This document shows, one piece after another, positions 2,960 through 29,235 of a DNA stretch of 64,000 nt. The stretch comes from a virus, in the IMG/VR virus record IMGVR_UViG_3300040816_000831; one strand, written 5' to 3'. The translations under genes and the position numbers were made by a program. Numbering within the stretch: the first letter of the stretch is position 1; every line of letters starts with the position of its first letter. The notes under the pieces are model-generated. The model was not told where the DNA came from. It ran no database searches and saw nothing but the letters and a program-made list of their open reading frames with translations.

Positions 2960-3205
2960 TTAATCCCTCGGTGTTGGTTTAGACAAAATACTTCTTGCCT
3001 TTGCTTTATCTTTTTTTAACAGTTCACCTGCATCAGTTAAGTATCCTTCGGTCTCTCCATAAGAAAGTTTTCTCCAAGATTTACCATCTTCGTGTGCAAG
3101 CCATTTGGCTATTCTTAACCCATCGAAAGCGCCACCATCATTCTTAGTGTATACACCTTCGTTAACAAACTCATCAATATTTTTTCTTAGTTGTTTAAAT
3201 TTCAT
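2960..3205 (-). CDS. Putative internal head protein
   Basis: MKFKQLRKNIDEFVNE leader. Confidence 0.5.
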   Translation of the reverse strand: MKFKQLRKNIDEFVNEGVYTKNDGGAFDGLRIAKWLAHEDGKSWRKLSYGETEGYLTDAGELLKKDKAKARSILSKPTPRD

Positions 3206-4119
3206 TACGCAAAGTCCTTTAAATTATCATCTAACCAGTCAGTAAATTCATCAGGGTCGTCTGTTTTTATTTCACCGTTATCGAATGCGTACATATACAA
3301 GGCTTCTTCTGCGTCTGCAGGAAGTTCAAGGCTGCCTTTTGATAAAGCTTTTTTAATTACTCTTCCATACTTTCTTTTTATCTGTATTTGCGACATTTTT
3401 TTCATGATACCTTCATCAATAGATTCTGAAAAATTAACGCTAAGTCTTTTTGAATGTTTCTTTAACAAATCTATGATTTTCATGTTTTTATTTTTTGGAT
3501 TTGCAAATTCATCTGCTAATAAATCGTCTGATAATATGTAAGTATCTAATACTTCATCAAACTTTTGACCTTCTTTAGAACCTACCTTTTTATTACCGTC
3601 CTTTTTTAACATTTTTACAAGTTGTTGTTTTGCCTTTGCCCTTTCCTTTGGGTCTCTATCTTTAATACCAATAGCCATTGTACCTTCATTAACAGATTCA
3701 TTAGCAAGTCTTAATGCAGCTTCAACTTCTGGGTGGTCGCCTAAACCTCTTCTCATTCTTTCGATTTTTTTATAGGCGCCAGTCATGTTGCCACTCATAT
3801 CTTTAGCTATTTTAACAGCTCTTTTTATTAGACTTGATGAGAATGAAGCTTCTTCTATATATGATTCACTTAAACCTATAGAAACTGCAATCTTAGCTGC
3901 CTTCTCTTGGTCTGCTTGTTTTGTGCCAGGTCTTAAGTCTACTATATAATATTTTCCAATTCCAGCTTTTACAATGTTTATTGGCATACCATCTACTTTC
4001 TTTTGAAAAGTTTTTGCAGCTTTCTGTGTATCAAATGCGTAATGAACTCGTTCATTAACTGATTCGTATCTTAAAGCTTTTGATAAGAATTGCTCTCTTA
4101 GTTGTTTAAAATTTTTCAT
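3205..4119 (-). CDS. Putative multi-module internal head protein (start revised to MKNFKQLRE)
   Basis: ATGA overlap with the upstream stop; internal ESVNE/ESYIEE/ESIDE motifs. Confidence 0.55.
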   Translation of the reverse strand: MKNFKQLREQFLSKALRYESVNERVHYAFDTQKAAKTFQKKVDGMPINIVKAGIGKYYIVDLRPGTKQADQEKAAKIAVSIGLSESYIEEASFSSSLIKRAVKIAKDMSGNMTGAYKKIERMRRGLGDHPEVEAALRLANESVNEGTMAIGIKDRDPKERAKAKQQLVKMLKKDGNKKVGSKEGQKFDEVLDTYILSDDLLADEFANPKNKNMKIIDLLKKHSKRLSVNFSESIDEGIMKKMSQIQIKRKYGRVIKKALSKGSLELPADAEEALYMYAFDNGEIKTDDPDEFTDWLDDNLKDFA

Positions 4120-4355
4120 TTCATTTCCTTCTTTGCTTCGGCTGAACTTAAGCCGTATGTTCCTGTTAACCATTTCATTAAAGCTTTTGGCTCTCCTTCA
4201 ACAGTCATTTCCATTTTTGTTTTATTCCATTTAACTAAAAAGACTCCTTCTTCTTCCCAGTCAGGACTAAATTCTCTTGGGTCGCCGACATCAAAGTCAA
4301 GGGTAATCTTTTTAATACCTTCTTGTAGATTTCTAATTTCTTTAAATGTTTTCAT
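4116..4355 (-). CDS. Putative internal head protein
   Basis: MKTFKEIRNLQE leader, close to T4 IPI MKTFKEF. Confidence 0.55.
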   Translation of the reverse strand: MKTFKEIRNLQEGIKKITLDFDVGDPREFSPDWEEEGVFLVKWNKTKMEMTVEGEPKALMKWLTGTYGLSSAEAKKEMK

Positions 4356-9905: not shown

Positions 9906-11291
9906 CTATAGTTTGAAGTCAGCAAACGAGTCATTACTTTCTCGCTCACCAAACTTATTTATCGGCTTATCTGGCACCATTTCTGTCATAATGTCTGATT
10001 GAGCCGATTCCTCTACATCATATAGTTTCATGCGGGAACGGTCCACACCAATTACAAATCTCTTGTATTTGGTTGGGTCGTTATATCTATTCTTCAATTG
10101 TTTTACTAGCAATTGACCTAATTCTTCAAGTTCCTCTGTTGAAATAAGAGCAAACATTAAATCAGCCGTTGCTGGTAAACCAAACGATTCAGATGTATCC
10201 TCAAGACCGACGTCAGTATTACTGAAACCAGACCTCGTGGTCTGTGTTGCCGATACTATTGGAACATTGAATTCCACAGCCAAACCGCGAAGTTCTTCCG
10301 CAATGGCTTTAATATAAGTATAACTATTTATACTTCCGCCCATGCCACGCATGCGACTTGAGGCACAAATATTTAAATAGTCAATATATATCATATCAGG
10401 CTTAAATGTCTTTTTGAGTTTAAGCTCATTAAGTAAAGCTCTGAAATGACCAGTATGTGCAGAACCAGTAGGATATTCTTTTACTATAAGTTTACCTACA
10501 GATGATTTTGCAATTTTTCCAATCTTATCATCGAATACATTTTTAGGTAATGACCCAAGAGATTCGATTGGAAGGTTCATAAGATTCGCATCAATTCTTT
10601 CAGCGATTCTTTCTTCTGCCATTTCCATTGTTATGTACAATACATTCTTTCCTTGATTAAGTACTCCTGCTGCACAATGACACATGAATAATGACTTACC
10701 TACGCCTGTTCCGGCTAAGGCAATGTTAAGTGTCTTATTAGGTAGACCACCTTTTGTTATTTTATTAAAATAATCTAAATCAAACGGTATTCTATCTTCT
10801 TTACGATTATAAAAGTCAAACCTTTGTTCACTATCATCAATATAATCATGACCTATTTGTTCGTCAAACGAAACACCAAGAGCTTCAGATAGTATTTCAG
10901 GTATAGCACCTTCACTTCTTTCTTTATCTTTGCCATCAATGATTCCTATTGAATCCATAATAGCATTATAAACTGCTCTTTCTTTACACCACTTTTCTGC
11001 TTCAGCAATTAAGTAATCAGTATCGACATCAGATTTATCGATAATTTCTGTGATTAATCTTTGAGCATTATTTAATACATCTTCAGGTGCTTGAATTTTC
11101 TTTAACTCAAGTTCTAAGATTTTTGATGTTGGTAATTTATTATGTTTGCTTACAAATTGGACTATAAGGTCGAACACAGTTTTATGTGTACCTTCAAAAT
11201 ATTCATTCTTTAAATAAGGTACAACTCTTCTGCAGAATTCTTCGTTATGTAGAAGATGATTCAGTATGTGTGTTGGTAACTGATTCGTCAT
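9906..11291 (-). CDS. gp41: DnaB-like replicative helicase
   Basis: Walker A AGTGVGKS, YITMEM, IDYLNI, KQLKNRY. Confidence 0.97.
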   Translation of the reverse strand: MTNQLPTHILNHLLHNEEFCRRVVPYLKNEYFEGTHKTVFDLIVQFVSKHNKLPTSKILELELKKIQAPEDVLNNAQRLITEIIDKSDVDTDYLIAEAEKWCKERAVYNAIMDSIGIIDGKDKERSEGAIPEILSEALGVSFDEQIGHDYIDDSEQRFDFYNRKEDRIPFDLDYFNKITKGGLPNKTLNIALAGTGVGKSLFMCHCAAGVLNQGKNVLYITMEMAEERIAERIDANLMNLPIESLGSLPKNVFDDKIGKIAKSSVGKLIVKEYPTGSAHTGHFRALLNELKLKKTFKPDMIYIDYLNICASSRMRGMGGSINSYTYIKAIAEELRGLAVEFNVPIVSATQTTRSGFSNTDVGLEDTSESFGLPATADLMFALISTEELEELGQLLVKQLKNRYNDPTKYKRFVIGVDRSRMKLYDVEESAQSDIMTEMVPDKPINKFGERESNDSFADFKL

Positions 11292-11607
11292 TTCCTATTC
11301 CTATTGTTGCTTGATTAGTTTCTTTAGCGTATTCTAAAGAATCTGTTATTATATATTGTAGTACTGAACCTAAGTAATTTTTAAACGATTCGTCTTTCTC
11401 AAGTTCATCTACACTAAAATCTGCTGGGTCTTGTACTGTAAAGTTAAAGCTTAATGTTGCTATATCTAAGTTAGGGTCTTCTTTGACTCCAACTTGTCCA
11501 TATACAACTATAACATTCTTCCAAGTACCAGTTTTAAGTTTTACTCCTTGAAACGCACTATTGTCGTTTTCTACAATTGAGTAGTCTTTTTCGCTTATGT
11601 TGTACAT
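11245..11607 (-). CDS. gp40-like head assembly chaperone
   Basis: Position between uvsX and gp41 as in T4; size; YGQVG...LSFNF pattern. Confidence 0.55.
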   Translation of the reverse strand: MYNISEKDYSIVENDNSAFQGVKLKTGTWKNVIVVYGQVGVKEDPNLDIATLSFNFTVQDPADFSVDELEKDESFKNYLGSVLQYIITDSLEYAKETNQATIGIGNDESVTNTHTESSST

Positions 11608-12659
11608 TATTCTTCAGTATCAATATCAAGGTCAATATCAATCATTGGTCTATGACCGACTGAATAATATGTTTTTACAAACTCTTTAAAGTTAGTATTT
11701 TCCAAGATTGGTTCCCAGAACTTTTTCTTAAGAGTATCTTTTTCTCTTACTTTTGGTTCTAGTATTTCTCCAGTTTCCATATCAACTGCGGCATACCAAC
11801 CAACATTTGGTTTAGTTACGTATCCACCAGCCATTGCAACATCGAGCAATCCACTATACTGTTCTATACCACCTTCCCACGTTACTGAGATTGGTACCTT
11901 TGATTTTTCTTTTACAAATCTAGATTTTTCTACATTGATTACAAAATGATACCCTTGTATTTCTGTACCTTTTTTATCTTGACGTCTTCCAATAATCCAT
12001 ATATTGTCTGATGAGTAATAGATACCTGTACCACCTGAAACAACTGCTTTAGGAAACAATCCAATTTCTTGATAAGTATGATTAACAGCAAGTAAAGGGA
12101 TATTCTTCATGGTTAGATAAGGAGTAATCATTCTGAATAATCCCTTTAATGCTTTAGCTCTTGACATGTCAGCGACTGACTTTTCATTGAGAGCATCTTC
12201 CAACTCTTTCTTAGAGGCTAAGTTTCCAATTGAATCAATAACAACAACAACTTTATCTCCTCTTTCGATATTTTCGAGTTGACCTACTAAATCGAACTTA
12301 AGTTGTTCGACATTTTGTACTGGAGTATGTAATACTTTTTCAGTATCAATACCAAATGATTCGAAATAAGATTGAGGTGACCCAAACTCTGAATCATAAA
12401 ATAACATTACTGCATCTTCATGCTGCTTTAAATAAGCTGCTCCCATAAGTAGAGCAAATGAAGTTTTGAAATGCTTTGAAGGACCGGCAAGAACTGTAAG
12501 TCCTGATGTAAGTCCTCCGTCAATATCACCTGATAATGCAACATTTACCATTGGCACCTCAGTGACAGTTATATCTTTTTCAGCAAATAAAACTGAATCA
12601 GATAGAATAGAAGTATCTTTGATTTTACTATTCTTTTTTAATTTATCCATTATAGACAT
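11607..12659 (-). CDS. uvsX: RecA-like recombinase (start revised to MSIMDKL)
   Basis: GPSKHFKT, FYDSEFG, IDSIGNL, NHTY; GGAG RBS. Confidence 0.96.
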   Translation of the reverse strand: MSIMDKLKKNSKIKDTSILSDSVLFAEKDITVTEVPMVNVALSGDIDGGLTSGLTVLAGPSKHFKTSFALLMGAAYLKQHEDAVMLFYDSEFGSPQSYFESFGIDTEKVLHTPVQNVEQLKFDLVGQLENIERGDKVVVVIDSIGNLASKKELEDALNEKSVADMSRAKALKGLFRMITPYLTMKNIPLLAVNHTYQEIGLFPKAVVSGGTGIYYSSDNIWIIGRRQDKKGTEIQGYHFVINVEKSRFVKEKSKVPISVTWEGGIEQYSGLLDVAMAGGYVTKPNVGWYAAVDMETGEILEPKVREKDTLKKKFWEPILENTNFKEFVKTYYSVGHRPMIDIDLDIDTEE

Positions 12660-12660
12660 A

Positions 12661-12927
12661 TTATCTTCTCCTGGCTTTTGACGGCCTATTAAATGCATCT
12701 AGCATTCTTTGTTGTTTACGACTTCTAGAAACTGCTTCAGCTTTTTTTCTTTTCTTTTTAGCTGTAGGTTTTTCATAGAATTCTCTTTTGCGTACCTCTT
12801 GTACAATACCTGCGTTTTCACAGGCTTTTTTAAATCTTCTTAGACCAACATCAAAAGGCATTTCTTTTGATGGTCTTTTGTCTCTAGGATTTTTATTCTT
12901 CCTTGGACGTAAATCTATACTTGGCAT
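12661..12927 (-). CDS. rpsU: 30S ribosomal protein bS21
   Basis: [32 protein letters not shown] matches the gammaproteobacterial S21 signature. Confidence 0.92.
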
Positions 12928-12956: not shown

Positions 12957-12985
12957 ATTATAACATAAAATCAGTGAGTTGTAAA
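12957..12985 (-). promoter_or_regulatory. Early promoter for bS21-uvsX, embedded in the last codons of the upstream gene
   Basis: TTTACA-N17-TATAAT. Confidence 0.75.
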
Positions 12986-14145
12986 CTGTTTTTTTCATAT
13001 TCATAGGTTCTTTTTTTATTATCCTGTATTAGGAATTTAGTATCAATCATTTCAAGCTGATTGTTTAAATATTTTTGAACCATTTTTGCAGCATGCTCTG
13101 CTGTAGTCACTGGCACATTTTGGCATATATGGTTAAGTGACCTTTTAGGTTCAAGCAATATAAAATCTTTTGGTAGTTTCATAAGAGATAAAGCTTCTCT
13201 TACTGTTAAGTATCTATCTTCATCCGGATGAGTTAAGCACGTTGGCATATGTCCAACAAATGCTCCTATTTTATCTTTAGGAATCTCTGTAGTTTTTCTC
13301 ATGATATTACCACCAGCTTTGAGCTTATGATATTGCCTATCGCATTTCTTTGCAACATTATCATATCCATTTTCTCTCATCCATTTAGCTACTTCTTTAT
13401 ATGTTGTTCTTTCTTCAATGTAGTCCATTGGGTTTGTTGTCTTTTCTATTTTATCTTGAAATTCACTATGTGATATACCACCTTCTAATACTTCAAGAAC
13501 ATATCGATAATATGGTTCTTCAGAAGGTTTCTTTTCATTACAAAGAATTTGACTCATTGGGTCATCATCTTTTCTTTCAACTTCTCTTATATCATCAGCA
13601 ATCATTGTAGGTCTTTCTAGTACATATTCAAATAATGGTACTTCATTACCTTTCCAAAAGAAATAGAATGTTCTATCTCGTACTTGGCTGAGTCCATGTA
13701 GTATAGATTTTGTTTTAAAGATACTAAAAGTATATCCATTATCTTCTCCTATCTTCCTCAATCTTCTTACAACGGGTTCTCCCATCTTACTTGCAAGCCT
13801 TGGTGCGTTCTCTCCCCAAAATACTTTTGGTTGTACTTCACTAAGTACATATTCAGCAGATGTAAACATCCATTCGTTCATAGGATTATTACTTGCAGCT
13901 GATGGACTAAGTGAGCTGAGCCCTGCACATGGGCATACAGTATTAATCACATTAACTTTTTCTGTGTAACTCGCTCCCTCTGAGAGGTTCAAATATGGGA
14001 CCTCATGGTTATAATGATTTAATAAGTGAGATTCATTAGCTTGAAAGCCTTCATATGTCATAATATACTTTGGTCTTTCTCCAAAGACATTTTCCATTGC
14101 TATTGTTTCTCCACCTATTAGTGGTACTATACTCGCATAACTCAT
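12958..14145 (-). CDS. DNA C5-cytosine methyltransferase homolog with atypical SAM-binding motifs
   Basis: CPCAGLS (IV), GENA (VI), QVRDRTF (VIII), RYLTVREA (IX); motif I reads VPLIGG and motif X reads CQNV. Confidence 0.8.
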   Translation of the reverse strand: MSYASIVPLIGGETIAMENVFGERPKYIMTYEGFQANESHLLNHYNHEVPYLNLSEGASYTEKVNVINTVCPCAGLSSLSPSAASNNPMNEWMFTSAEYVLSEVQPKVFWGENAPRLASKMGEPVVRRLRKIGEDNGYTFSIFKTKSILHGLSQVRDRTFYFFWKGNEVPLFEYVLERPTMIADDIREVERKDDDPMSQILCNEKKPSEEPYYRYVLEVLEGGISHSEFQDKIEKTTNPMDYIEERTTYKEVAKWMRENGYDNVAKKCDRQYHKLKAGGNIMRKTTEIPKDKIGAFVGHMPTCLTHPDEDRYLTVREALSLMKLPKDFILLEPKRSLNHICQNVPVTTAEHAAKMVQKYLNNQLEMIDTKFLIQDNKKRTYEYEKNSLQLTDFML

Positions 14146-15122
14146 GCAAAAAACTCCTCTAGTCCAGCCTTTTCAATTCCATTCCAATATGGATAGAACT
14201 CTCTGGATAAATGTATTGATTGTGGTTTCTCCATATATTTAAAATCGAGCTTACCTTCTTTATTAAAGAGATGACCGGTCCATCTTTTGATACCGTATTC
14301 TTTCTCTATGTAATCGTTAAATTTATTTCTTGCATCATTTCTTTCTGACCAAGAACCGTAAAATGGTTGTCCTTTATAATATCCTGATTGCGGTATTCTT
14401 CTACTTACATCTTCTATTGGAAGCAACTCATATATCTTTGCATTATACTTATGAGCTTCTTCAATATACCTATCAGCTAAATCTTCTATCTTTTGTCCTA
14501 GTCTAATTACATGATGTCTTATATCAATATTACCAAAATAGCATTCAAGCTCTTCATAATCGTAAGGAATGTATTTATCAAATCCTTCGTTTAAAGCTCC
14601 ATTTAAAGTTTTGAATGGAACACTGTTTACTGTCCAACCTGGTCGATACATGCAGATGGAATGACTATCACCAATAACTATTTTAGAAGTTGGATTAGGA
14701 TAGTCGATTCTTTCAGCTTCATTAAACATGCGTTCTAGATTTTTAAGGTCTACATCATGCCATTCCGGTTGAACCTCTTTCTTAGCCGATTCCAGTTTTG
14801 ATTTAACCATTTCGTGATACGGCGGGAAGTCGATTCCAATTGAAAAGACTCTGCCTTTGAACTTAGAAAAGTTGACAGTGTTCTTAACATAAGGAAAACC
14901 GTATACGCCACCAAACATATTAATTCCACCACTCCAATCAGTGCCGTGATAGACCCAAAGACTATCATAATCATTGTGGTCTTCAATTTCTCCACCGTAG
15001 TTAACATCGCAGTTTCCATATTTCTCCTTTATCATATCGCCATACATTACTCCTGCAGCTCCTCTATGAGAAGCAGCTCTCTTAGCTATTGGAATAAATG
15101 GACAATTAATTATATTTTTCAT
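14142..15122 (-). CDS. SGNH-hydrolase-like protein with C-terminal clamp-binding-like motif
   Basis: IGDSH, FGNID and SIHLS blocks; ends GLEEFFA. Confidence 0.55.
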   Translation of the reverse strand: MKNIINCPFIPIAKRAASHRGAAGVMYGDMIKEKYGNCDVNYGGEIEDHNDYDSLWVYHGTDWSGGINMFGGVYGFPYVKNTVNFSKFKGRVFSIGIDFPPYHEMVKSKLESAKKEVQPEWHDVDLKNLERMFNEAERIDYPNPTSKIVIGDSHSICMYRPGWTVNSVPFKTLNGALNEGFDKYIPYDYEELECYFGNIDIRHHVIRLGQKIEDLADRYIEEAHKYNAKIYELLPIEDVSRRIPQSGYYKGQPFYGSWSERNDARNKFNDYIEKEYGIKRWTGHLFNKEGKLDFKYMEKPQSIHLSREFYPYWNGIEKAGLEEFFA

Positions 15123-15129
15123 TAGATAT

Positions 15130-15158
15130 ATTATACCATACTTTTGTTCAAATGTAAA
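15130..15158 (-). promoter_or_regulatory. Early promoter (probably a leaderless transcript)
   Basis: TTTACA-N17-TATAAT, 7 nt from the ATG. Confidence 0.8.
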
Positions 15159-15163
15159 CGTTT

Positions 15164-16228
15164 TTATTCAAAGAATTCACTAAGGGTATTAGTCTTTTGT
15201 ACGCGCGCCACGCGTCTACGCGCGCATGCTCGCTCGTCTTCTCTTATCTGTAGGTATACACCAAACTGACATGACAACACTTCAGTTCCGTAGTATTTAA
15301 GAGAATCTTGTTCATATTGAAATAATTTACTACCGTCTTTCTTATTTATATTGAAAGCTTTTGGATGAAATACAACATCTTTTGTTAATCCTATTTCATC
15401 TGAATTTTCTCTCATATAGTATATTGCTTCGTCATACAATTTCTTTGGAGCTTCTGGCCACATTAATTGTATTGTATACACAGCTCCTGGACCCGGCGAT
15501 ACAAATCTTTGGTCATGATGATACTTCATTTGTGGTAATACAGATGAAGAAGCAGCTCCATGGAATCCGTAATAATGTCCTATGCCAGGTTGTTCTCTTA
15601 AAAGAGTATAAATCTCTGACATATGATTACATTGTTGCATTCGTTCTAAGAAACCAGTATCTCTAAAAGAAGATACCCATTCACAAACATCAACTGCATG
15701 AAACTTTCTATCTGGTTCGTTATACTTTTCACGACAATAGTTTCTAGCAGCAGTTTGTATAGATGTGTGTAATTCTGTTGTTCCCCAAATTGGTTGCTTA
15801 TTCTTTATTGCTTTATCTAAATTATTACGAACATATTGAATATAATCTTTATTTCCATTTGCTATTCTATCAAAATCAACAAAGACGTTATCTTCTCCTG
15901 AAGCAAGAAAATGAACTCCTCTTCCACCATAGAAATGAGATATAAAAGTATTACCTACAATATTCATTATTGTAGTATCTAGACTTGCTATCTCTTGACC
16001 AATAAATCTCATACGGTCATCAAGTGTAATTGTTGGATGAAAATATTCTACATCTTCGCCAAGACCAAAATCATTCTTGCCATGACGATTTACTGATTCA
16101 TATTGTTCTTTTGAATATCCAAGTTGTATATTAGACCTTTCATTAACTTTATATAGAAACCAATTGAACTCTTTCATGAGTTCTTTATCGTAATTCGACC
16201 AATCGTAATTATATTTAGTACTTGACAC
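15164..16228 (-). CDS. aGPT-Pplase1 / 5hmdU-DNA-kinase helical-domain-like protein
   Basis: ER..I, YF...LDDR, PGIG and FVSPGPGA motifs resemble this DNA-glycosylase-fold family; ends TLSEFFE. Confidence 0.6.
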   Translation of the reverse strand: MSSTKYNYDWSNYDKELMKEFNWFLYKVNERSNIQLGYSKEQYESVNRHGKNDFGLGEDVEYFHPTITLDDRMRFIGQEIASLDTTIMNIVGNTFISHFYGGRGVHFLASGEDNVFVDFDRIANGNKDYIQYVRNNLDKAIKNKQPIWGTTELHTSIQTAARNYCREKYNEPDRKFHAVDVCEWVSSFRDTGFLERMQQCNHMSEIYTLLREQPGIGHYYGFHGAASSSVLPQMKYHHDQRFVSPGPGAVYTIQLMWPEAPKKLYDEAIYYMRENSDEIGLTKDVVFHPKAFNINKKDGSKLFQYEQDSLKYYGTEVLSCQFGVYLQIREDERACARRRVARVQKTNTLSEFFE

Positions 16229-16628
16229 GTTCCTCGTTATCTCTCTTTAAATGAACAATTGATATATCAGGACATCTTTTTTTAATCTCTTTGATTTGAA
16301 TTGGGTCATCTTCGAAATGCATTTCTATTTCTACTCCCAAGTCTTTTAACATATTAATCATTTGTCCTTTAAAGATACCAGAAGCTTTTCTGCCATATAG
16401 TGGATTTTCTTTTACTCCATGAGTCACTTTATGATTTTTTAGTTTTCTTTCAAGTGGATTCATGTAAAGAGTATTATATATTCCTCTAGATTCTAGCATT
16501 TTTACTGTAGCTTCTCTATCAGCAAAAGGCCGCCCAGTAATGATGATGTCATCTTTACCGGGTCTTACGCCTGTGGTGCTTTCACCAAAATAGATTACTC
16601 CATCGATGTCAAACGAATTAATTTTCAT
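16215..16628 (-). CDS. HAD-superfamily phosphatase (start revised to MKINSFDIDG)
   Basis: FDIDG, ITGR, K and FEDD motifs. Confidence 0.85.
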   Translation of the reverse strand: MKINSFDIDGVIYFGESTTGVRPGKDDIIITGRPFADREATVKMLESRGIYNTLYMNPLERKLKNHKVTHGVKENPLYGRKASGIFKGQMINMLKDLGVEIEMHFEDDPIQIKEIKKRCPDISIVHLKRDNEERVKY

Positions 16629-17910
16629 AATCATTCTTCGCATCTTGGAAGGTGTGAGGCAAATCTGCTGCCTTCGGTCTATTCTCTTTGAGCTGTGGAG
16701 TAGTAATATCTGTCAATACTCTCCTAGCTAAAGCATCACATTCAAATTTGGCATCTTGAGTTTTGAGCTGTAATGGAGGAGTCTTTTGAGTCCATGCTGA
16801 TGGTCCTCTTAAATATCCTACAATGCCCATCTCTGAAGCTACCTTACAAAATCTAATTGCTGAAACAACAACTCCACCAGAGTTTGGAGAGTCTTGAACT
16901 GAAAGTCTAGCTGACATTTCATATCTTGCTCCTGCAAATCCATAAGCAACCATATCAAAGTTAGCTATTTTATTATCAGATGAGATATAATCTCCACCTG
17001 GTTTTTGTTGAACAGTAAGAGATGGACCAGCAAATAATGTCATACCTGCAGTTGATTCTCCTCTTACGCTGTTTTGTCCTTTTAAAACATTTTCTTTTGA
17101 TACATGTTTGTTATGTAATCTATATTGTTTTGCCATATTCAAGAAGTCAGTATTTGCTGTTCTTCCTGTTCTTATATGCTCTTGTCCTTGTGTAGAACCA
17201 GCAGCCATATTCATTTGAATGTGTTGTGTTACCATTAAACCTGAATCTAACATAGCACCTTGTAGAACTTCTGACATTCTTGAAGCTCCCCAGGCTGACC
17301 TCATATCTGAACCAACAATTGTAAGTCCTGCATCTATGAATCTTTGTTCAGTTATCATAGCATCTTCTGTTGAAATCAATGTCGGTATACAGTTTACGAA
17401 ATGTATTCCTGCATCTAACGCAACATCAATCCAGTATTTAGAAGCTTCTTCTGAACCAACTGGTAAATAGTTAATGAGTACATCTACATCATGATACTGT
17501 AGTAACTCAACAGTTCTTTCAAAAGATTCTGCTGGTACAGCTCCATTTACAAATGTGACTTCATCTGGATAATCATGCATGTGAGGAGCTATTCCGTCCA
17601 TTTCTGGAGCTGAATAGACCATTGCATCATTATTTACAGCTGAACTATTTGATGTAGTTGTTATTTTTTCGACATGGTCCATAGCGCAATTAGGTTGAGC
17701 TCTTAAAGCTTTTGCTAATTTTTTATTTACTTTCCTTTTATCGATATCAAATCCAATAACAAACTCGATGTCGTGTACTGAATATCCGCCGATATCTTCA
17801 TACATTAGACCAATTTTGTCTTCTGGATTTTCGTTATAATATTGTACACCTTCCACTAAAGACTTTGCACAACTTCCGACGCCGATTATTCCGGCTTTTA
17901 TTTTTGACAT
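16618..17910 (-). CDS. ino1: myo-inositol-1-phosphate synthase
   Basis: GVGSCAKSLVEG NAD fold, NYLPVGSEEA, FVNCIP, NTDFLNM, SK, DNK, DSPNSGG. Confidence 0.9.
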   Translation of the reverse strand: MSKIKAGIIGVGSCAKSLVEGVQYYNENPEDKIGLMYEDIGGYSVHDIEFVIGFDIDKRKVNKKLAKALRAQPNCAMDHVEKITTTSNSSAVNNDAMVYSAPEMDGIAPHMHDYPDEVTFVNGAVPAESFERTVELLQYHDVDVLINYLPVGSEEASKYWIDVALDAGIHFVNCIPTLISTEDAMITEQRFIDAGLTIVGSDMRSAWGASRMSEVLQGAMLDSGLMVTQHIQMNMAAGSTQGQEHIRTGRTANTDFLNMAKQYRLHNKHVSKENVLKGQNSVRGESTAGMTLFAGPSLTVQQKPGGDYISSDNKIANFDMVAYGFAGARYEMSARLSVQDSPNSGGVVVSAIRFCKVASEMGIVGYLRGPSAWTQKTPPLQLKTQDAKFECDALARRVLTDITTPQLKENRPKAADLPHTFQDAKNDYEN

Positions 17911-17972: not shown

Positions 17973-18278
17973 CTATATACTATTAGTTATAACACTTATC
18001 AGACCACTTCCAAGGATAATGACTGCTGCTGTGTTTAAAATTATCAATGCTCTATCTTTCCAGATAAGAGCTACTATTAACCAACCGAATGTTCCAACTA
18101 AGGAAAACGCTTGGTCATAGAGAGCAAGGTCAGGATTAGACCTGCTTGCCATAGCAATTAAAAGAATAGCTGATGCTACCCATTTAATATACCAATCAAT
18201 TGTATACTTAGGAGTTGCGCTCTTAAATATACGCTTTGAATTTTTTATTTCTTGTTCGTTAAATTTCGGTGAATTCAT
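17973..18278 (-). CDS. Small multi-pass membrane protein (DUF6552-like)
   Basis: WYIKWVAS...W.DRALI.LN pattern; three hydrophobic segments. Confidence 0.6.
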   Translation of the reverse strand: MNSPKFNEQEIKNSKRIFKSATPKYTIDWYIKWVASAILLIAMASRSNPDLALYDQAFSLVGTFGWLIVALIWKDRALIILNTAAVIILGSGLISVITNSI

Positions 18279-18699
18279 ATTTTACATTAGCCTCTTTAAA
18301 TATTTCATGTGTTTTTTCTATTGCTTCTTTCCATCTATCTGGAGTATTTTCTGAAAGCGATACAACTCTAGATATTCCTGCTTGTATTATACCTAATGAG
18401 CAATGACCACAAACTGGTAAACCATAAATATATAATATAGAATCTTTTAAAGATATTCCATTTTCTGCAGCATTATATATACAATTCATTTCTGCATGAA
18501 CTACATATTGATACTTTGTTTCTCTATGATTATATCTTTCTTTACTATCTTCAATACCTTTAGGAAATCCATTATATCCTGTTGCTAATATTTTTCTATC
18601 TCTTACAGCAATTGCACCTATTTTTCTACTTGGGTCTTTACTCCATGTAGATATTTCACGAGCAATATCAAGAAATCTTTTATCCCACTTATTTAACAA
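18259..18699 (-). CDS. cd: dCMP deaminase (likely TTG start at 18699)
   Basis: SKDPS, GYNG, HAEMN and PVCGHC zinc motifs. Confidence 0.9.
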   Translation of the reverse strand: MLNKWDKRFLDIAREISTWSKDPSRKIGAIAVRDRKILATGYNGFPKGIEDSKERYNHRETKYQYVVHAEMNCIYNAAENGISLKDSILYIYGLPVCGHCSLGIIQAGISRVVSLSENTPDRWKEAIEKTHEIFKEANVKYEFTEI

Positions 18700-19366
18700 G
18701 GTCAAAGTGCCTCTCATACACATGTAAGTTTTGTACTTGCCAATAAATTTTACCACCACTTTTAAGTGGATGACCATTATAGTATAAATCTTTTTCTAGT
18801 TTTTCTAATACGTATTTTTGCCAAGCGTAATCATTTCGATAACCATATACAACGTCATTACTTCTCATTTGAACTACACAATGTAATTGTTCATCTCTTA
18901 TATAATATGTAACAGCATTTGTACAAATAAAATCATTCTTACCATCTTCTTTAAATTCGCGCCAGATACTTGGTCTTTGATATACCATTGAAGCTCTACG
19001 AGAATCTGGATTAATTTCACTTAGTTCTTTTACTACTTGATTATATTGTCTATGAAATTTTTTACTGAATATAAGATGACCATAATTAGAATTGATTTCA
19101 CCATAATCATTTGCAGAATATTCCCATGCTGCTGGCGACTTACCATATATTTCAGCAAGTTTATTAATATTAGTTGACCTAGAATTATACCATTCTATTT
19201 CAGCATCAATATATTCTTGATTGGGTTTACCAAAAATTGATGGCTTATCTGCTAGAAAAGACGCAGCAAATATTTCGATTGTTTTACAACCAGTCTTATC
19301 ATCGGTAAACTCTTTGTTTTTAAGTTTATCGATAAACGTATTTGCGATATCTTTAGTCTTCAACAT
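18689..19366 (-). CDS. gp42: dCMP hydroxymethylase (gp42-like, thymidylate synthase fold)
   Basis: DFICTN, MRSNDVVYGYRNDYAWQKYVL and LHVY closely match T4 gp42, including the dCMP-specifying Asp. Confidence 0.85.
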   Translation of the reverse strand: MLKTKDIANTFIDKLKNKEFTDDKTGCKTIEIFAASFLADKPSIFGKPNQEYIDAEIEWYNSRSTNINKLAEIYGKSPAAWEYSANDYGEINSNYGHLIFSKKFHRQYNQVVKELSEINPDSRRASMVYQRPSIWREFKEDGKNDFICTNAVTYYIRDEQLHCVVQMRSNDVVYGYRNDYAWQKYVLEKLEKDLYYNGHPLKSGGKIYWQVQNLHVYERHFDLVK

Positions 19367-20874: not shown

Positions 20875-21387
20875 CTATTTGTAGAATATGTGGTTATTTA
20901 TTATAACAGTTTGATTGAGCGAATCTGCCCAATAAGGAAGGACTCTATCATTGTGATAATGTGTTGACCCCTCTGTAATATCCGGATATGCTCCTTGTAT
21001 GACATCTCTTGCTATGTGTAATGATTTAAGCCATGTTGGACTATCTTCTGGGTCGTCTGATTTGCCATCACAAAACCAACTAAATTGGCATTGATTACGC
21101 ATAGGAATCATTTCGCCTAACCAGTTTTCTTTCCACTTAGCTTGGTAAATAACTCCACAAACATCCGTTGGATAATTTGGATGTTTTGTTCTATTTAGAA
21201 CAACATGAGCAACAGCTACTTTTCCAGCTAATGGTTGATTACCAGCTTCAAAGTAAATGTTTTGAGCCATACAATAAATATCATTGTTGGCGTCTGAAGC
21301 TTCAACCTTTGGAACAGCAAACATTACTGCACCTAGCATGAAACCAAATAACATTCCATATAGAAATGCTTTATATTCATCTGTCAT
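20875..21387 (-). CDS. Cell wall hydrolase (SleB/Hydrolase_2) with N-terminal signal or TM segment
   Basis: CMAQNIYFEA, VLNR, CQFSW, THYH, HIFY. Confidence 0.9.
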   Translation of the reverse strand: MTDEYKAFLYGMLFGFMLGAVMFAVPKVEASDANNDIYCMAQNIYFEAGNQPLAGKVAVAHVVLNRTKHPNYPTDVCGVIYQAKWKENWLGEMIPMRNQCQFSWFCDGKSDDPEDSPTWLKSLHIARDVIQGAYPDITEGSTHYHNDRVLPYWADSLNQTVIINNHIFYK

Positions 21388-22301
21388 ATATTATTTTTAA
21401 ACACGAATTCAATAGCTCGTGCTGCCTCCTTTTCTAAATCTCTTTTATTATACCACCCACCAGTATCAGTATCTAAATCTCTACAGATATATTCGATTTC
21501 TTTTGGTGTAATTGGATAACCTTTACTATGAGCATTACCAGCAGTTGTTAACATGATTTGATACATTTTTGCATACCAACCAGTTCCACTGATACCTTTA
21601 TATTCGTCAACTTGTTTTTTATTAACAAAAGGACAATCACGATATGATGTCCACGTATAATTTGTATTGTTCAATTCATTTCTTTTTCTTTCAAGTAACG
21701 CTTTTTGTATTGCTTCTGGAAAACGATCGAACATTGTTTGATTAGGTTTAACGTATGGATATTGTTCCATAAGTTTATGTGGGTTCATAATATCTCCATC
21801 GTGAGAAAATATGAAATTAAAACTGTTTTTGTATTTAGCAGGAACATAATACATTCTGCTTAAGTCTTTGGTTTGAGCATCAGCAATATCGCCAATCTCT
21901 TTGTTTAAAGCATACCAAAAATGCTTAATGTCTTCTTTATCAACGAATTCTGTTAATGGAAAGACGAGTCTAAACTTTGGTGATTCAACTGTAGATGATG
22001 CTGTTGAATAACATACATAACGATACTTATCATACTTTGATTCAATATCTTTCATATCGCCTTCATAATCATCAATATCAAGAATACCAAAGCCGGCCCA
22101 ACCAACAACATTATCATTTGCACGAGTAGTACTAGTTTGATATATTGCTGGACTTAAAAGCGGAGCATCTTTCTTTGTAGGATATTTAGTCGACTCAGAA
22201 AGCTTATAGAGAATAGCCTCGAACTCGTCGAAACTATTATAATCCATACGCTTATCTGTTTTGTTATCGTATATATTATCGAATATTGTGCAACTTACCA
22301 T
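21384..22301 (-). CDS. AEP-superfamily primase/polymerase-like protein
   Basis: ILDIDD, YSTAS..SPKFRLVFPL, D...KD.SRMYYVP; PriCT-like C-terminus. Confidence 0.65.
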   Translation of the reverse strand: MVSCTIFDNIYDNKTDKRMDYNSFDEFEAILYKLSESTKYPTKKDAPLLSPAIYQTSTTRANDNVVGWAGFGILDIDDYEGDMKDIESKYDKYRYVCYSTASSTVESPKFRLVFPLTEFVDKEDIKHFWYALNKEIGDIADAQTKDLSRMYYVPAKYKNSFNFIFSHDGDIMNPHKLMEQYPYVKPNQTMFDRFPEAIQKALLERKRNELNNTNYTWTSYRDCPFVNKKQVDEYKGISGTGWYAKMYQIMLTTAGNAHSKGYPITPKEIEYICRDLDTDTGGWYNKRDLEKEAARAIEFVFKNNI

Positions 22302-23013: not shown

Positions 23014-23586
23014 TTAATCCCAATTAATTGCAGGTATTTGTCCATAAAATCCTTGAGTTGCTTTTAATTGAGTAGGAAAATATTTAGAAAGCTTCTCAAT
23101 ATCTCCATGATCGTAATTTAATTTAGGCAATCTTGCCTCTTTCTTTTGAACTATAACAGATACATCATATCCATAAGTTCTCACAGCTGCATCTGAACAG
23201 TCAAATCCAGCTAATATAAGATTATATAATAATAATCCTGCATTCCATAATGAAACATGTCCACCAACAATATTGTGTCTAAGTGGTGGAACAGATATTG
23301 CAAGAATTCCATTTGTATCTATAAGATGAAATATCTTACTTAAAAAATGATGTACATTCAATTGATGTTCAAGTGTATGTGCACACCAAACACAATCAAA
23401 ATTTCTATCAAAGTCGATTGTATTAAAATCACCTTGATAATCTGATTCGAGTATATCTGTTGTATAAACTTTTTTACCTCTTTCTTTAAACATATTAGAA
23501 AACTTTCCATCACCTGCGCCAACATCAAGTACTGAATTAAATTGAAAATCTGTTACTAACTTTTCAAAGGTGAGTAAACTTCTCAT
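23014..23586 (-). CDS. Class I SAM-dependent methyltransferase (start revised to MRSLL)
   Basis: VLDVGAGDG, FDCVW.AHTLEH; ATGA overlap with the gp43 stop. Confidence 0.85.
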   Translation of the reverse strand: MRSLLTFEKLVTDFQFNSVLDVGAGDGKFSNMFKERGKKVYTTDILESDYQGDFNTIDFDRNFDCVWCAHTLEHQLNVHHFLSKIFHLIDTNGILAISVPPLRHNIVGGHVSLWNAGLLLYNLILAGFDCSDAAVRTYGYDVSVIVQKKEARLPKLNYDHGDIEKLSKYFPTQLKATQGFYGQIPAINWD

Positions 23587-26114
23587 CCGAAAAAATCCTC
23601 CAGGCTTGCAACTTCTTTCGAAGTCCAACCTACTGCTTCCAAGACCGGTTCAATAGGATCGAGGAATGTTTTTTGAAACTGTGTTTCATGGTCGATGTAT
23701 TTTCTTAAGCCAAACTCATCTGGAAGATAAGATGGGAAAGCAATTACATTTTCATGAATTGAATTTGGTTGACGAAGATATATGAACTTAATCTTTTCGC
23801 CATTGTTTATAAGTTCGTATTTCTTTTTAAGCTGATTGTCTTCAATTAGTTTATTGTAAAGAATAGCTCCACGAACATGTATAGGCGTTCCTTTTTTATA
23901 GAGGGTATTTCTATCTTGGAACTTTTTAACTTGAGTCACTCCGCGCGGAAATGCAATCTGGTCAGGTTCAAGAGTTTTGAAATAGTTCTTAAACTGTTCG
24001 ATAGCTTGTTGAACTGTATTTTCATCTTCTTTCATTATGACTTTGAATATATTTTTAAGAGCATCACGACATGGTTCAGGTGTAGAAGACTTAATTGCTT
24101 CAATACCCATAATCTTAAGCTTTGGCTCGGCATATCTCACGCCTTCGTTATCATGTACATTCATAATATATCTTTTCTTTGCAGTCCAAAGCGCACGGTC
24201 AGCGATTGCTTCACGTTTCATAACCATACGATTATCTACTCCACCAAGATACTTATACAATTGCTCATAAGACTTTTCAAGCTCTGGTTCAAGCGCTTCA
24301 CTAGCAACTTTATCTAGAAAGTCGATTGTATTTTCAGGTTTGAATTTTTGTACAAAGTCGTTTAAGCATACATACAGCGAGTCTGTGTCGATAGCAATAA
24401 CATAGTCTTTCCATTTTTCAGGTTTGAGCACTCTATTGAGATAGGTGTTAAGCGAATATTCGGCCCATCGAATTGTAAGTTGTCCGGTGAGGGTAATTGC
24501 TTCTGCGATTCTCTGGTCAAAGAATCGAAAATAGCGATTGCCAAGAGCGCCATACAAACTGTTAAGAAGAATCTTAATAGCCATTTGTCTGTTTTCGGCA
24601 ATTGCAATATCTCTTTCAATTTGATATAATTTTTGTTTGTCATTTTTATCTACCTTTTCTTTTTCTTTTTGAGCGTTAATCATTTCTTGTTTAATACCAA
24701 CACGCTCTTTATACATCTCATCGATAATGAATGGTATTATACCTGGCTTATCTACATTAAAATATTGTCCATTAGCTGCAAGAGCTTTACCTTTATTAGG
24801 AGCGATACGATGTTCGCTTATAGCACTATCAATATCGAATTGAGCAATCTCTCCATTAGCAATCGTTTCAGGCGACATATTGTATTGCATAATGATTGAT
24901 GGATAGAGAGAGTTTAAGTCAAAAGAAACAACGTTATCATGTATTCCTACTTGTGGGTCTTTAACAAAGCCACCTGGATAGTTAGACTTTACTTTATCTT
25001 CAACGAAAGGTATAGCAATATTGTTTGCAAATAATCTGCGATAGATAATCGTATCCCATATCATTGTAGTACCGAATGTATCGTTATAGTTAACGCCAGC
25101 TTTATATGCCATTGTCATACAAAGAGTAATCAATCCAAGCTTATCTTCGATTTTGTCGACAAGCTCAACGTCTTTGATATTATAGTCAATAAACTTTTGG
25201 TGATTATGCTTGTAAAGAGTATGAAGATTCGAATACTCATCATAAGATAGTTTCTTTTCTCCTAACACGACATGAGCAATGTTATCAAGTTTATAAGATT
25301 CTTGTGGTCCATAAGAATAACCAAACTTCTTAAATAGGTCGAGGTAATCAAGTTGAGATATACCTTTAAGTTCATAAGCAGTTTGAGTCCTTCCCATCTT
25401 AGTTACGTCTTGTCTATCAATCATTCCCCAAGGACTGAGTCTTTTTACGTAAGCTTCTCCAAGCATACGATTGATTCTATTCACAAGGTATGGAATATCA
25501 AAGAACCTTGAATTCCAGCCAGTCACGACATCAGGACAATATTGTTGAGATGACCAATGAGTAATAAAATTAATAAGCAAGTCATCTTCACGGTCAAACT
25601 TACGATATACTACCATGTGGTCTTTCATATAAGATTTGTCAGTATCATAATCACCTAAGCCCCAGACATAATAAGTATTGCCAATATTGTTTTTCATACA
25701 AATGGCTGTAATCTTATGGTCGGCTTTTTCAGGCTCAGGGAATCCATCGTCAGAAGCAACTTCAATATCAATTGTTGATACGTTGATTTTGTTTCGATCG
25801 AATTCGATATTACCAGGATAGTAATCATTAATGAATGCTGGAACGTACTTTGTGTTTCCATATATCTTTTTACCAGATACGCCTTTATTAGCTTGAACAT
25901 ACTCGTTAGCAGTTCTCATGGATTCGAACCTTTTGCCAGCATTTGCTACACCTACAGGATTTCCATCAAGCGATTTCCACTTGGTAGGAAGATTGGTAGA
26001 TGTAAAAAGGATTGGTTCGTATTTGACTTTCTTTTCAATTCGTCTTCCGTGGTCATATCCTCGTAAGAGAATCATATTACCATATCGAGACACATTAGTA
26101 TAGAATTTCATCAT
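23583..26114 (-). CDS. gp43: Family B DNA polymerase
   Basis: DIE exo I, FDLNSLYPS, KILLNSLYG, DTDS, KKRY; C-terminal SLEDFFG clamp peptide. Confidence 0.98.
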   Translation of the reverse strand: MMKFYTNVSRYGNMILLRGYDHGRRIEKKVKYEPILFTSTNLPTKWKSLDGNPVGVANAGKRFESMRTANEYVQANKGVSGKKIYGNTKYVPAFINDYYPGNIEFDRNKINVSTIDIEVASDDGFPEPEKADHKITAICMKNNIGNTYYVWGLGDYDTDKSYMKDHMVVYRKFDREDDLLINFITHWSSQQYCPDVVTGWNSRFFDIPYLVNRINRMLGEAYVKRLSPWGMIDRQDVTKMGRTQTAYELKGISQLDYLDLFKKFGYSYGPQESYKLDNIAHVVLGEKKLSYDEYSNLHTLYKHNHQKFIDYNIKDVELVDKIEDKLGLITLCMTMAYKAGVNYNDTFGTTMIWDTIIYRRLFANNIAIPFVEDKVKSNYPGGFVKDPQVGIHDNVVSFDLNSLYPSIIMQYNMSPETIANGEIAQFDIDSAISEHRIAPNKGKALAANGQYFNVDKPGIIPFIIDEMYKERVGIKQEMINAQKEKEKVDKNDKQKLYQIERDIAIAENRQMAIKILLNSLYGALGNRYFRFFDQRIAEAITLTGQLTIRWAEYSLNTYLNRVLKPEKWKDYVIAIDTDSLYVCLNDFVQKFKPENTIDFLDKVASEALEPELEKSYEQLYKYLGGVDNRMVMKREAIADRALWTAKKRYIMNVHDNEGVRYAEPKLKIMGIEAIKSSTPEPCRDALKNIFKVIMKEDENTVQQAIEQFKNYFKTLEPDQIAFPRGVTQVKKFQDRNTLYKKGTPIHVRGAILYNKLIEDNQLKKKYELINNGEKIKFIYLRQPNSIHENVIAFPSYLPDEFGLRKYIDHETQFQKTFLDPIEPVLEAVGWTSKEVASLEDFFG

Positions 26115-27050: not shown

Positions 27051-27485
27051 TTAATTTTTTTCTCCATTATTAGAGTTCCCTATGTTATACTTAGGGCATA
27101 GTTCCCATTGAGTTTTTTCCTTAAAAGGAATCACCTTAATTTGTCTCAATGGTGCTAAATCTTTAGAAGATTCAGGCTTCATAATAGTTACTAAACCCCA
27201 GTCGGCTAGTAATGTTGCAATTGTATTTCTACGTTGTACATCATTCTCAAGTAAACTAGATGGTTTTCCATCTAGTAAAAATAGTTCTTTAAAGTGAACT
27301 ATAAAATATCTACCTTGCTTATGTAATATATGGCAAGATTGAAAAAGCTTCTGGTCTTTCCTAGAAGCTACACCTATACGTGTTAATGTTTCACGTATCT
27401 TTAAAAAGTCGTCTGGTTCGTTTAGAGAGACTTCTAACATAGAGTTAGGAGTCCAATCTGTAATTTGTATGTTATTGTTTTCCAC
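27051..27485 (-). CDS. regA: Translational repressor
   Basis: DFLKIRETLTRIG, QSCHILHKQGRYFIVHFKELF. Confidence 0.97.
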   Translation of the reverse strand: MENNNIQITDWTPNSMLEVSLNEPDDFLKIRETLTRIGVASRKDQKLFQSCHILHKQGRYFIVHFKELFLLDGKPSSLLENDVQRRNTIATLLADWGLVTIMKPESSKDLAPLRQIKVIPFKEKTQWELCPKYNIGNSNNGEKN

Positions 27486-27849
27486 CTTTATAAATCCTTT
27501 GTTTCAATTGTTCAATATTTTCATTACTCATTAATGATAATGCAGATTTAGCCTTTTCGTCACTATACCCATAATTTTCTTTGATGAGTTCTAGATGGTC
27601 AATATCACTGGCCTTAATCCACTTAGACCATCTTTTCTTCTTTCTAATTATATTTATAAGAAAATCGAACTGAACGCGATGGTCTAGGTGATGATGTTTA
27701 TTCATTTCATTAGCATACAATACAGTGTCTTTAAAGAAAGAAAGACCACGATTTATAATGAAAGGATTGTATTCTTTCTCAGCAATGTCATCAACCATGA
27801 TATCTTTCTTGGTTTCATTAATTGCTTTTAAGTAATCGAATGGACTCAT
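27472..27849 (-). CDS. gp62: Clamp loader small subunit
   Basis: PFDYL, YNPFIINRGLS, ANEMN, YGYS..KA. Confidence 0.93.
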   Translation of the reverse strand: MSPFDYLKAINETKKDIMVDDIAEKEYNPFIINRGLSFFKDTVLYANEMNKHHHLDHRVQFDFLINIIRKKKRWSKWIKASDIDHLELIKENYGYSDEKAKSALSLMSNENIEQLKQRIYKGGKQ

Positions 27850-28046
27850 TGTTTATCTATGAACGTTTGAGCGTCTGATTTTTTGGTGAATGTTCTTTCA
27901 GAAATAATAACATTTGCAGAATTGAATTGAACTGCTCTATACTGTTCTTTTTGACTTTCAAAATGAACGGTTACTATATCCCATCTATTAGTCGTTTCTT
28001 GTTCTACGATTTCGCCACCAAATGGCAAGTTTACGAATTTTTTCAT
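27846..28046 (-). CDS. Hypothetical protein inserted between gp44 and gp62
   Basis: ATGA overlaps on both sides. Confidence 0.6.
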   Translation of the reverse strand: MKKFVNLPFGGEIVEQETTNRWDIVTVHFESQKEQYRAVQFNSANVIISERTFTKKSDAQTFIDKQ

Positions 28047-28978
28047 TTGAATTTTACTCCTGCCATTACTTCAGTTAAACATGCAACCATATTCAATTCA
28101 TGGTCTGCAACAAAACTGTTTTTATATTGATAATCAGCCAGAATAAGTACCAATTGCGGTATTGATTGAGGCTCTACGTATTCATTCATGTTATCGTATA
28201 CTTTACGAAACATTGATGCTGGTTCTATATCGATATTATCAGCAACCCATTGTCTCATTTTACGAAAGTCTTTTATTTTAAGAGCATTCATAAGAGTATC
28301 AAGAGCAATATCATTAGCATTGACTAATATACCACTATCGATTTTACCAAAGTTTGAATATCTTTGTAGTTCATTAAGTGTTCTTCTGAAATCTGGAAAG
28401 TATTTCATAATCAGTTCAGCAATAACAGCTGGTTCTGAATTTATACTTTCGACTGATAGTATCTGTTGAACTCTTTGCATAAACTGACCAGCAAGAGCTT
28501 CTTTCTCTTTCTTTGGCATCGCAAATTCGATAACACTGGTTCTTGAATGTAGTGGCTCGATTATACGATTCTTGAAATTACAAGTAAGTATAAACCTACA
28601 GTTAGATGAAAACTCTTCGATAAATCCACGCAAAGCTGGTTGAGTGGATTGTGGATTAAGGTAATCCGCTTCGTCCAAGATGACGACTTTGAGGCCGCCT
28701 GATAAGGAAACGGACGAAGCGAATTGTTTGATTTTGTTTCTTAGAGTATCAATACCTGATTCTTCTGAACCATTAATGATTATATAGTCTAAGTCAAGCT
28801 CGTTGCAAAGTGCTCTAGCAACTGTGGTCTTTCCTGTACCAGCAGTACCAGTGAACATCATATTCTGAAGTTCGCCTTTGTCTAAAACATTTTGGAATAT
28901 CTTTTTAAGGTCTAGTGATAATACACATTCCTCTACTTTTCTTGGGCGGTACTTTTCCACCCATAGGAACTCTTCCAT
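28043..28978 (-). CDS. gp44: Clamp loader large subunit (start revised to MEEFLW)
   Basis: WVEKYRP, GTAGTGKT, LDEAD, SR. Confidence 0.97.
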   Translation of the reverse strand: MEEFLWVEKYRPRKVEECVLSLDLKKIFQNVLDKGELQNMMFTGTAGTGKTTVARALCNELDLDYIIINGSEESGIDTLRNKIKQFASSVSLSGGLKVVILDEADYLNPQSTQPALRGFIEEFSSNCRFILTCNFKNRIIEPLHSRTSVIEFAMPKKEKEALAGQFMQRVQQILSVESINSEPAVIAELIMKYFPDFRRTLNELQRYSNFGKIDSGILVNANDIALDTLMNALKIKDFRKMRQWVADNIDIEPASMFRKVYDNMNEYVEPQSIPQLVLILADYQYKNSFVADHELNMVACLTEVMAGVKFK

Positions 28979-29235
28979 TATAGTACCTCCCAACCTTCTA
29001 CGGTATCTAACCTAAAAGACCTCCATGCATTTTTATCCAATGACCATACTGGAAATGCTTCCATTCCTGTCGCTGAATAATCTATTGATATTGTTACACC
29101 AGCCTCTTTTAGAGTTTCTGGTTTTAGAGTACACGGCATTATTCTTAGTTCGCCTGTATCTATTTTTTTGAATGTGACTGTGACTTGCCCTTTTTGTAAA
29201 GCCTCGAGCAATTTGGCTTTTTCATTGTTGTTCAT
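28978..29235 (-). CDS. WYL_2/Sm-like SH3 domain protein (start revised to MNNNEK)
   Basis: VTFKK..GELR.M.CTL...WRSFR. Confidence 0.75.
   Translation of the reverse strand: MNNNEKAKLLEALQKGQVTVTFKKIDTGELRIMPCTLKPETLKEAGVTISIDYSATGMEAFPVWSLDKNAWRSFRLDTVEGWEVL

Follow-up and report, generated by a model that had tools for sequence, protein, structure and literature searches.

The 64,000-nucleotide stretch of viral DNA IMGVR_UViG_3300040816_000831 (hereafter the window, meaning the whole stretch analysed) contains 83 open reading frames (ORFs) and has the predicted gene layout of a T4-like marine myophage. Three adjacent genes in this window encode unrelated enzymes—MT395, U326 and K354—that end in peptides resembling the C termini of the DNA polymerase (gp43) and the late sigma factor (gp55) of the same phage. 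We consider it probable, from sequence comparison and by analogy with T4, that these tails dock the three enzymes on the gp45 sliding clamp for replication-coupled, post-replicative hypermodification of DNA in a hydroxymethyl-pyrimidine pathway. The features that carry this proposal are listed below; every gene of the region lies on the minus strand.

12958-14145, minus strand: MT395, 395 amino acids, with a DNA C5-cytosine methyltransferase fold (PF00145, profile matches in the PDB and an AlphaFold2 (AF2) model)
12961-12981, minus strand: tail of MT395, QLTDFML in translation (protein end ...NSLQLTDFML)
14142-15122, minus strand: U326, 326 amino acids, with an N-terminal domain of unassigned fold and an SGNH/GDSL domain at residues 141-314 (phrog_13881, phrog_17781, AF2/Foldseek)
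14145-14165, minus strand: tail of U326, GLEEFFA in translation (protein end ...KAGLEEFFA)
15164-16228, minus strand: K354, 354 amino acids, of the HMUDK_hel family (PF18723)
15167-15187, minus strand: tail of K354, TLSEFFE in translation (protein end ...TNTLSEFFE)
23583-26114, minus strand: gp43 DNA polymerase (phrog_262, full length), with the tail SLEDFFG at 23586-23606
29613-30284, minus strand: gp45 sliding clamp, on which the tails are proposed to dock (phrog_223, E value 6e-73)
37238-37813, minus strand: gp55 late sigma factor (phrog_234), with the tail KLELFM at 37241-37258

A sequence-only reading of the window had likened TLSEFFE, GLEEFFA and QLTDFML to the ends of gp43 and gp55, and both the ORFs and the tails are exactly as it described, with gp43 ending ...ASLEDFFG and gp55 ending ...EKLELFM. 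The gene that it had taken for gp45 encodes a full-length homolog of gp45 from RB69 (1b77/1b8h) and T4 (1czd). Within the window, a C-terminal L-x-[DE]-F-[FM]-x is found only on gp43 and the three enzymes. We compared tail counts with expectations from shuffling in a 128-kb relative (71% complete, 167 ORFs). The strict pattern L.[DE]F[FLM].?$ matched 4 of the 167 ORFs, namely gp43 and the three enzymes, against 0.017 expected, and the looser pattern L..F[FLM].?$ gave 6 matches against 0.21 expected, the two additions being gp55 and one baseplate protein. This baseplate protein ends in LQSFFT, without the acidic residue, and was taken as a chance match. The sharing of the tail by gp43 and the three enzymes is far beyond chance.

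The distribution of the motif among neighbouring proteins also follows the earlier prediction that soluble precursor enzymes (myo-inositol-1-phosphate synthase (MIPS), HAD, gp42 and deaminase) carry no such tail: neither the window nor any of 51 related loci has the motif on MIPS, HAD, dCMP deaminase or the gp42-like protein, or on DUF6552, bS21 or UvsX. Conservation of the terminal motif, which the same reading had offered as a check, is clear when about 120 metagenomic homologs of each family are aligned. With one loose motif pattern used for counting, the tail is kept in 114/120 and 115/120 homologs of two of the families (about 95%) and in 74/120 of the K354 family, the remaining members of which have other hydrophobic or aromatic tails. 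Position by position, U326 homologs keep L in 97%, E in 87%, then a variable residue, F in 95% and F in 92%, followed by zero or one residue; MT395 homologs keep L in 97%, F in 98% and M in 97%, with a Q preceding the L in 94%. All three enzymes retain their tails across 51 syntenic IMG/VR loci.

The anatomy of the tails is that of appended peptides. In the U326 family, 4 to about 25 linker residues separate the end of the domain, at YPxWxG, from the motif; in the K354 family, the domain ends at RRxVAR, and a variable linker leads to LxxF[FLM]. The linkers of both families have an entropy of 2-3.5 bits and many insertions and deletions, and then give way to a near-invariant L/F/F; the linker before the MT395 tail is short. 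In the AF2 models of U326 and MT395 the predicted local distance difference test (pLDDT) score falls below 50 over the last 6-10 residues, the rest of each model being confident (U326, overall pLDDT 90.5 and 49 for the last six residues; MT395, overall pLDDT 90.6 and below 50 only at residues 386-395). From alignments and models, the tails thus look like short docking peptides that follow a divergent, flexible linker, and this arrangement of a variable-length divergent linker and a hydrophobic-acidic C terminus matches the published clamp epitopes of gp43, gp55 and gp33 (PMC2988020, PMC9690074).

Conservation of this kind might instead act on the DNA, if the last codons also served the next gene as promoter, ribosome-binding site or translational-coupling signal. 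Two features of the window bear on this.

12957-12985, minus strand: sigma70-like promoter match (consensus match only), TTTACA-17-TATAAT with TG (11/12), upstream of bS21 and over the last MT395 codons
12661-12927, minus strand: bS21, a phage-encoded ribosomal protein (PF01165), directly downstream of the MT395 gene

The promoter-like site and the tight packing of the genes, in which an ATGA combines the stop of U326 with the start of MT395, speak for a nucleotide-level signal. The sequence-only reading had itself cautioned that the QLTDFML codons double as the bS21 promoter. The overlap that it described is real; the constraint that it would impose is minor and leaves the conservation of the tail unexplained, because the F and M codons of the tail fall in the promoter spacer and because the tail persists where bS21 is absent downstream (L042, L043, L045-L048) or where the downstream gene differs. 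Across the 51 related loci, all the tails show synonymous changes at their Leu, Glu, Asp and Phe codons, which leave these residues in place, and the x positions change. The tail also reappears at the new C terminus of a fused protein in Aeromonas phage 44RR2.8t, and in other lineages its sequence shifts in step with that of the polymerase tail. For these reasons we regard a nucleotide-level explanation as highly improbable and, on present data, largely refuted.

The strongest evidence that the tails and the polymerase C terminus have a docking partner in common is, on comparison of the sequences, that they co-vary across lineages. In the 51 close loci, the tails of the three enzymes are present alongside a gp43 that ends in [SN]LEDFFG. 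Distant K354 relatives were sought with a profile of the family, which yielded 80 further loci; distant members carry lineage-specific tails (SLF, LLEF or LIVF). In Aeromonas phages the split gp43 ends in NNLFDMFDI, and the enzymes end in KTLELFDI (the phage 25 homolog) and SLDGLFAI (the 44RR2.8t fusion). In a group of uncultured phages that we label lineage B, the polymerase ends in LIYS[TA]SLF or ALF and two enzymes end in ..N[SA]LF or ..QTLF and in ..xSLF, a correspondence found in 15 of 15 loci. A complete phage genome of 359.5 kb encodes a polymerase ending in ..TIIEF and enzymes ending in ..QLIVF and ..PLIEF; the pattern [LI][LIV][EDV]F$ picks out these 3 and no others among its 530 ORFs, against 0.19 expected. 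All three enzymes of lineage C end in ..LL[EDSG]F, on fragments without a polymerase. The polymerase of lineage E is without a hydrophobic tail (..EEYKETN, ..KEKATI), and so are its enzymes, the MT395 homolog ending before the tail position. When enzyme and polymerase tails were paired across four independent lineages, the true match scored best of 24 permutations. On the sequence evidence, we read the tails as short linear docking motifs whose partner is also that of the polymerase C terminus.

The tails of lineages B and C include some that call for separate comment. Additional ..LF ends in lineage B were considered as clamp clients and rejected, as they belong mostly to the small subunit of ribonucleotide reductase (RNR) and to a small CobA-like protein. 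The RNR small subunit (PF00268; for example, L096:9697-10692) ends in an acidic ..E[ED]DLF. R2 subunits carry an R1-binding tail at the C terminus, the same position as this ..DLF end, and the example serves as a reminder that a hydrophobic C-terminal tail is not always a clamp motif. In lineage C, a further protein of about 400 amino acids (L078:8031-9233, L091:3433-4626, L101:9633-10847) gives a weak, sub-threshold signal for T4 beta-glucosyltransferase (PF09198, E value 0.003) and ends in the tail of that lineage (NLLEF, SLLEF or QLLKF); it may be a fourth clamp-tailed enzyme. HAD-like proteins of the same lineage (L072:13419-13841, L091) end in ..RHLEF or ..RHYEF, partly like the LLEF tail, a likeness that may be due to chance, RHLE being a conserved domain end in other lineages.

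The RNR case also lends some weight to a different role for the tails, be it that of a degradation tag, an oligomerization or assembly peptide of a multi-enzyme modification complex or a localization signal, with the resemblance to gp43 due to chance. Hydrophobic C-terminal tails evidently serve other partners elsewhere, and the tail is common to three enzymes of one pathway. However, such a function accounts neither for a tail that follows that of the polymerase through four versions of the motif and is lost where the polymerase has none, nor for its genome-wide restriction to gp43, gp55 and the three enzymes, and we judge it quite unlikely.

Only slightly less unlikely, in our estimation, is docking on some other shared partner, either a replisome hub (single-stranded-DNA-binding protein, helicase or a phage-specific scaffold) or, for the QLxxF of MT395, the host beta clamp. 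The data show co-variation with the polymerase tail and not the identity of the partner. The MT395 tail, with its well-kept Q before the L, is somewhat similar to the bacterial QL[SD]LF. In addition, no gp45- or beta-type clamp was matched in lineages B, C, D and E by the gp45 of the window, PF09116 or PF02768 (one protein and two Pfam models as queries), and for this reason the polymerase tail was used as a proxy for the clamp in distant lineages. The 359.5-kb phage does have a gp44-like clamp loader; its gp55 homolog has no tail and thus could not be used as a second reference. Against a different partner stand the binding of the polymerase C-terminal peptide to gp45 in T4 and RB69 (PMC2988020; RB69 clamp 1b77/1b8h), the presence of the same type of tail on gp55, an established clamp client, and the fact that the window encodes gp45 together with gp44/62. 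A different partner is the less parsimonious choice. We infer that gp45 is the docking partner, by analogy with gp43, gp55 and gp33 of T4 and RB69, because it fills this role in those phages and because this phage encodes both gp45 and its loader.

Several observations weigh against docking of the three enzymes on gp45. The MT395 tail (QLxxFM[LVI]) is the least like that of gp43 and partly overlaps the promoter-like site. With four independent lineages, the smallest p value that the permutation test can return is 1/24. The contigs of lineage E are fragments, which makes the tail-less control only suggestive, and in lineages B and D it is assumed that the polymerase tail binds a clamp. Furthermore, binding of T4 alpha-glucosyltransferase to gp45 was not reproduced in a 2025 preprint that used C-terminally His-tagged proteins (bioRxiv 10.64898/2025.12.06.692756). 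Each of the sequence-level predictions that we examined for clamp tethering held: conservation, anatomy, co-variation and the absence of tails from precursor enzymes.

Under the clamp-tethering proposal, gp44/62 would load the trimeric gp45 clamp during replication and the tails of the enzymes would insert in the hydrophobic site otherwise occupied by the C termini of gp43 and gp55. This docking could take place at vacant subunits of the ring that holds the polymerase, or on rings that stay on the DNA once the fork has moved on. Held in this way on new phage DNA, the enzymes would modify bases quickly, along the DNA and only on DNA that is clamp-loaded, that is, replicated; the soluble enzymes that make precursors would need no tail. 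The genes that would supply this pathway and the remaining replication genes of the region are as follows.

9906-11291, minus strand: gp41 helicase
11607-12698, minus strand: UvsX
16215-16643, minus strand: HAD/PNK-phosphatase-like protein, no tail
16618-17910, minus strand: MIPS-like protein, no tail
17973-18278, minus strand: DUF6552 protein, no tail
18259-18777, minus strand: dCMP deaminase, no tail
18689-19366, minus strand: thymidylate-synthase/gp42-like hydroxymethylase, no tail
21384-22301, minus strand: gp61 primase
27472-27849, minus strand: gp62 clamp loader (phrog_225 / phrog_168 for the gp62 and gp44 pair)
28043-28993, minus strand: gp44 clamp loader (same pair of assignments)

An ORF of 66 amino acids lies between the gp62 and gp44 genes. 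Three other proteins of the window have ends that may be further short docking tails: a 322-amino-acid protein of no family (3205-4173; NLKDFA), the gp41 helicase (SFADFKL) and the gp61 primase (IEFVFKNNI), the tail of the primase being kept in relatives. A search of known phages for nucleotide-level similarity to the gene cluster found none.

K354 is linked to hypermodification by its match to PF18723 (E value 1.2e-11, 45 bits against a cut-off of 25, residues 136-278), a family that comprises the helical domains of 5-hydroxymethyldeoxyuridine (5-hmdU) DNA kinases and aGPT-Pplase/AADT-type hypermodification enzymes, and that is present in nearly all of the listed K354 homologs. Sequence searches of the PDB with the K354 family found no solved relative, and a Pfam scan of K354 found no kinase-domain family.

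The Pfam scan of U326 gave no family, and its assignment comes from structure. The label 'SGNH-like' given to this protein by the sequence-only reading proved right for residues 141-314, which have a three-layer alpha/beta/alpha fold with a GDS(x) block I serine and match GDSL esterases and O-acetyltransferases (Foldseek E value 2e-6; VIA-align Z 12-13, with a root-mean-square deviation of 2.6-3.0 over 140-157 residues). The invariant residues of the family include G151, D152, S153, H154, D200 and H204, and N198 and H203 are near-invariant. We do not claim the N-terminal part as a relative of T4 beta-glucosyltransferase, the signals being sub-threshold (PF09198, E value 0.087; Foldseek rank 30, TM score 0.28).

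The U326 family is also present in T4-like phages of Aeromonas. In 44RR2.8t, the U326 and K354 families are fused in one protein of 795 amino acids (ORF233c, L001:6001-8388), with a Lys/Pro-rich junction that lacks the motif and a single tail, SLDGLFAI, at the new C terminus. This fusion and the conserved synteny speak for a substrate common to the SGNH-fold protein U326 and the HMUDK_hel protein K354. Action of the two on DNA is predicted, as is the kind of chemistry involved. The gene beside the fusion in 44RR2.8t (L001:4408-5931) encodes an SSF Na:solute symporter, of a transporter family that includes sugar and inositol carriers. In phage 25, a member of the U326 family lies two genes from a UDP-galactopyranose mutase (GLF, PF03275) (L002:3776-4840, L002:6001-7047). 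These Aeromonas neighbours, the mutase in phage 25 and the symporter in 44RR2.8t, hint at a sugar or polyol donor for the U326 family.

MT395 is assigned to the C5-methyltransferase fold by sequence. It matches PF00145 (E value 1.6e-15, 57.9 bits against a cut-off of 22), and its family profile matches M.HaeIII, M.HhaI and DNMT1 in the PDB. The core of PF00145 is represented by Pro-Cys, ENx, QxRxR and C-terminal Q/GNxVP (QNVP) motifs; P72-C73, E112-N113, Q154/R156/R158 and Q342/V344 are invariant in the family. Motif I is not the textbook FxGxG, reading VPLIGGE (P8, L9, G11 and G12 invariant), and the Pfam match begins only at residue 59; because of these two features, the cofactor and the reaction may be other than those of plain methylation.

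How a fast-replicating phage genome achieves complete base modification before host nucleases act is poorly understood. A clamp tail on three unrelated enzymes would offer a concrete mechanism for replication-coupled hypermodification, and it would explain selectivity for phage over host DNA, as modification would be confined to clamp-loaded DNA. The tail is moreover a cheap sequence marker, which may point to a role on DNA for orphan enzymes, the SGNH-fold protein among them, and to clamp clients in uncultured phages. In practical terms, we suggest that such enzymes may need the sliding clamp and its loader to be reconstituted in vitro, and that a tag placed at the C terminus may abolish their activity. 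The chances seem to us evenly balanced that clamp tethering is a general, lineage-tuned rule of phage hypermodification, by which unrelated enzymes repeatedly gain the peptide of their own polymerase; the window would then hold a three-enzyme, clamp-riding line, with a modification, possibly inositol-derived, placed on hydroxymethyl-pyrimidine DNA. If this rule is true, the tail could be used to single out DNA-acting proteins among orphan phage enzymes and to identify the clients of each phage's clamp.

Full-text literature searches found no paper on clamp-binding tails of hypermodification enzymes, and clamp tethering is not mentioned in the searchable papers on thymidine systems. Several known systems share parts of the arrangement. 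Eukaryotic DNMT1 binds PCNA through a PIP box, internal and N-terminal in the protein, in the course of maintenance methylation. A short clamp-binding peptide brings an enzyme of the C5-methyltransferase fold to new DNA there, and would do so here; the clamp family and the motif differ, the PIP box of DNMT1 is internal whereas the tails reported here are C-terminal, and the DNMT1 system is not one of phage anti-restriction hypermodification. Clamp 'tool-belt' clients have been reviewed more generally (PMC9690074).

The only precedent that we found for a phage modification enzyme on the clamp, now disputed, is T4 alpha-glucosyltransferase, which was reported to interact with gp45 (Sommer et al. 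2004, pmid 15381072, as cited in PMC6024577). The likeness is that of a DNA-modifying enzyme working from the clamp just after replication; here, the evidence is instead a conserved, co-varying tail on unrelated enzymes. Post-replicative hypermodification of thymidine involves a 5-hmdU DNA kinase and aGPT-Pplase/AADT enzymes (named in PMC13229309). The window resembles these systems in the HMUDK_hel domain of K354 and in the pairing of a hydroxymethylase with enzymes predicted to act on DNA, and differs in its partner genes, which are MIPS-like, HAD, SGNH-fold and C5-methyltransferase-like.

The closest parallel is with the phage clamp epitopes themselves. The hydrophobic-acidic C termini of gp43, gp55 and gp33, which follow divergent linkers of variable length, are interchangeable ligands of gp45 (PMC2988020). 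The enzymes of the window share with them a peptide of the form L-x-D/E-F-hydrophobic at the extreme C terminus after a flexible linker, as do gp43 and gp55 of this phage; the carriers here are base-modification enzymes rather than a polymerase or transcription factors, and their binding to gp45 is predicted. Our analysis thus extends known clamp-epitope biology to hypermodification enzymes, for which lineage-specific co-variation with the polymerase tail provides new support.

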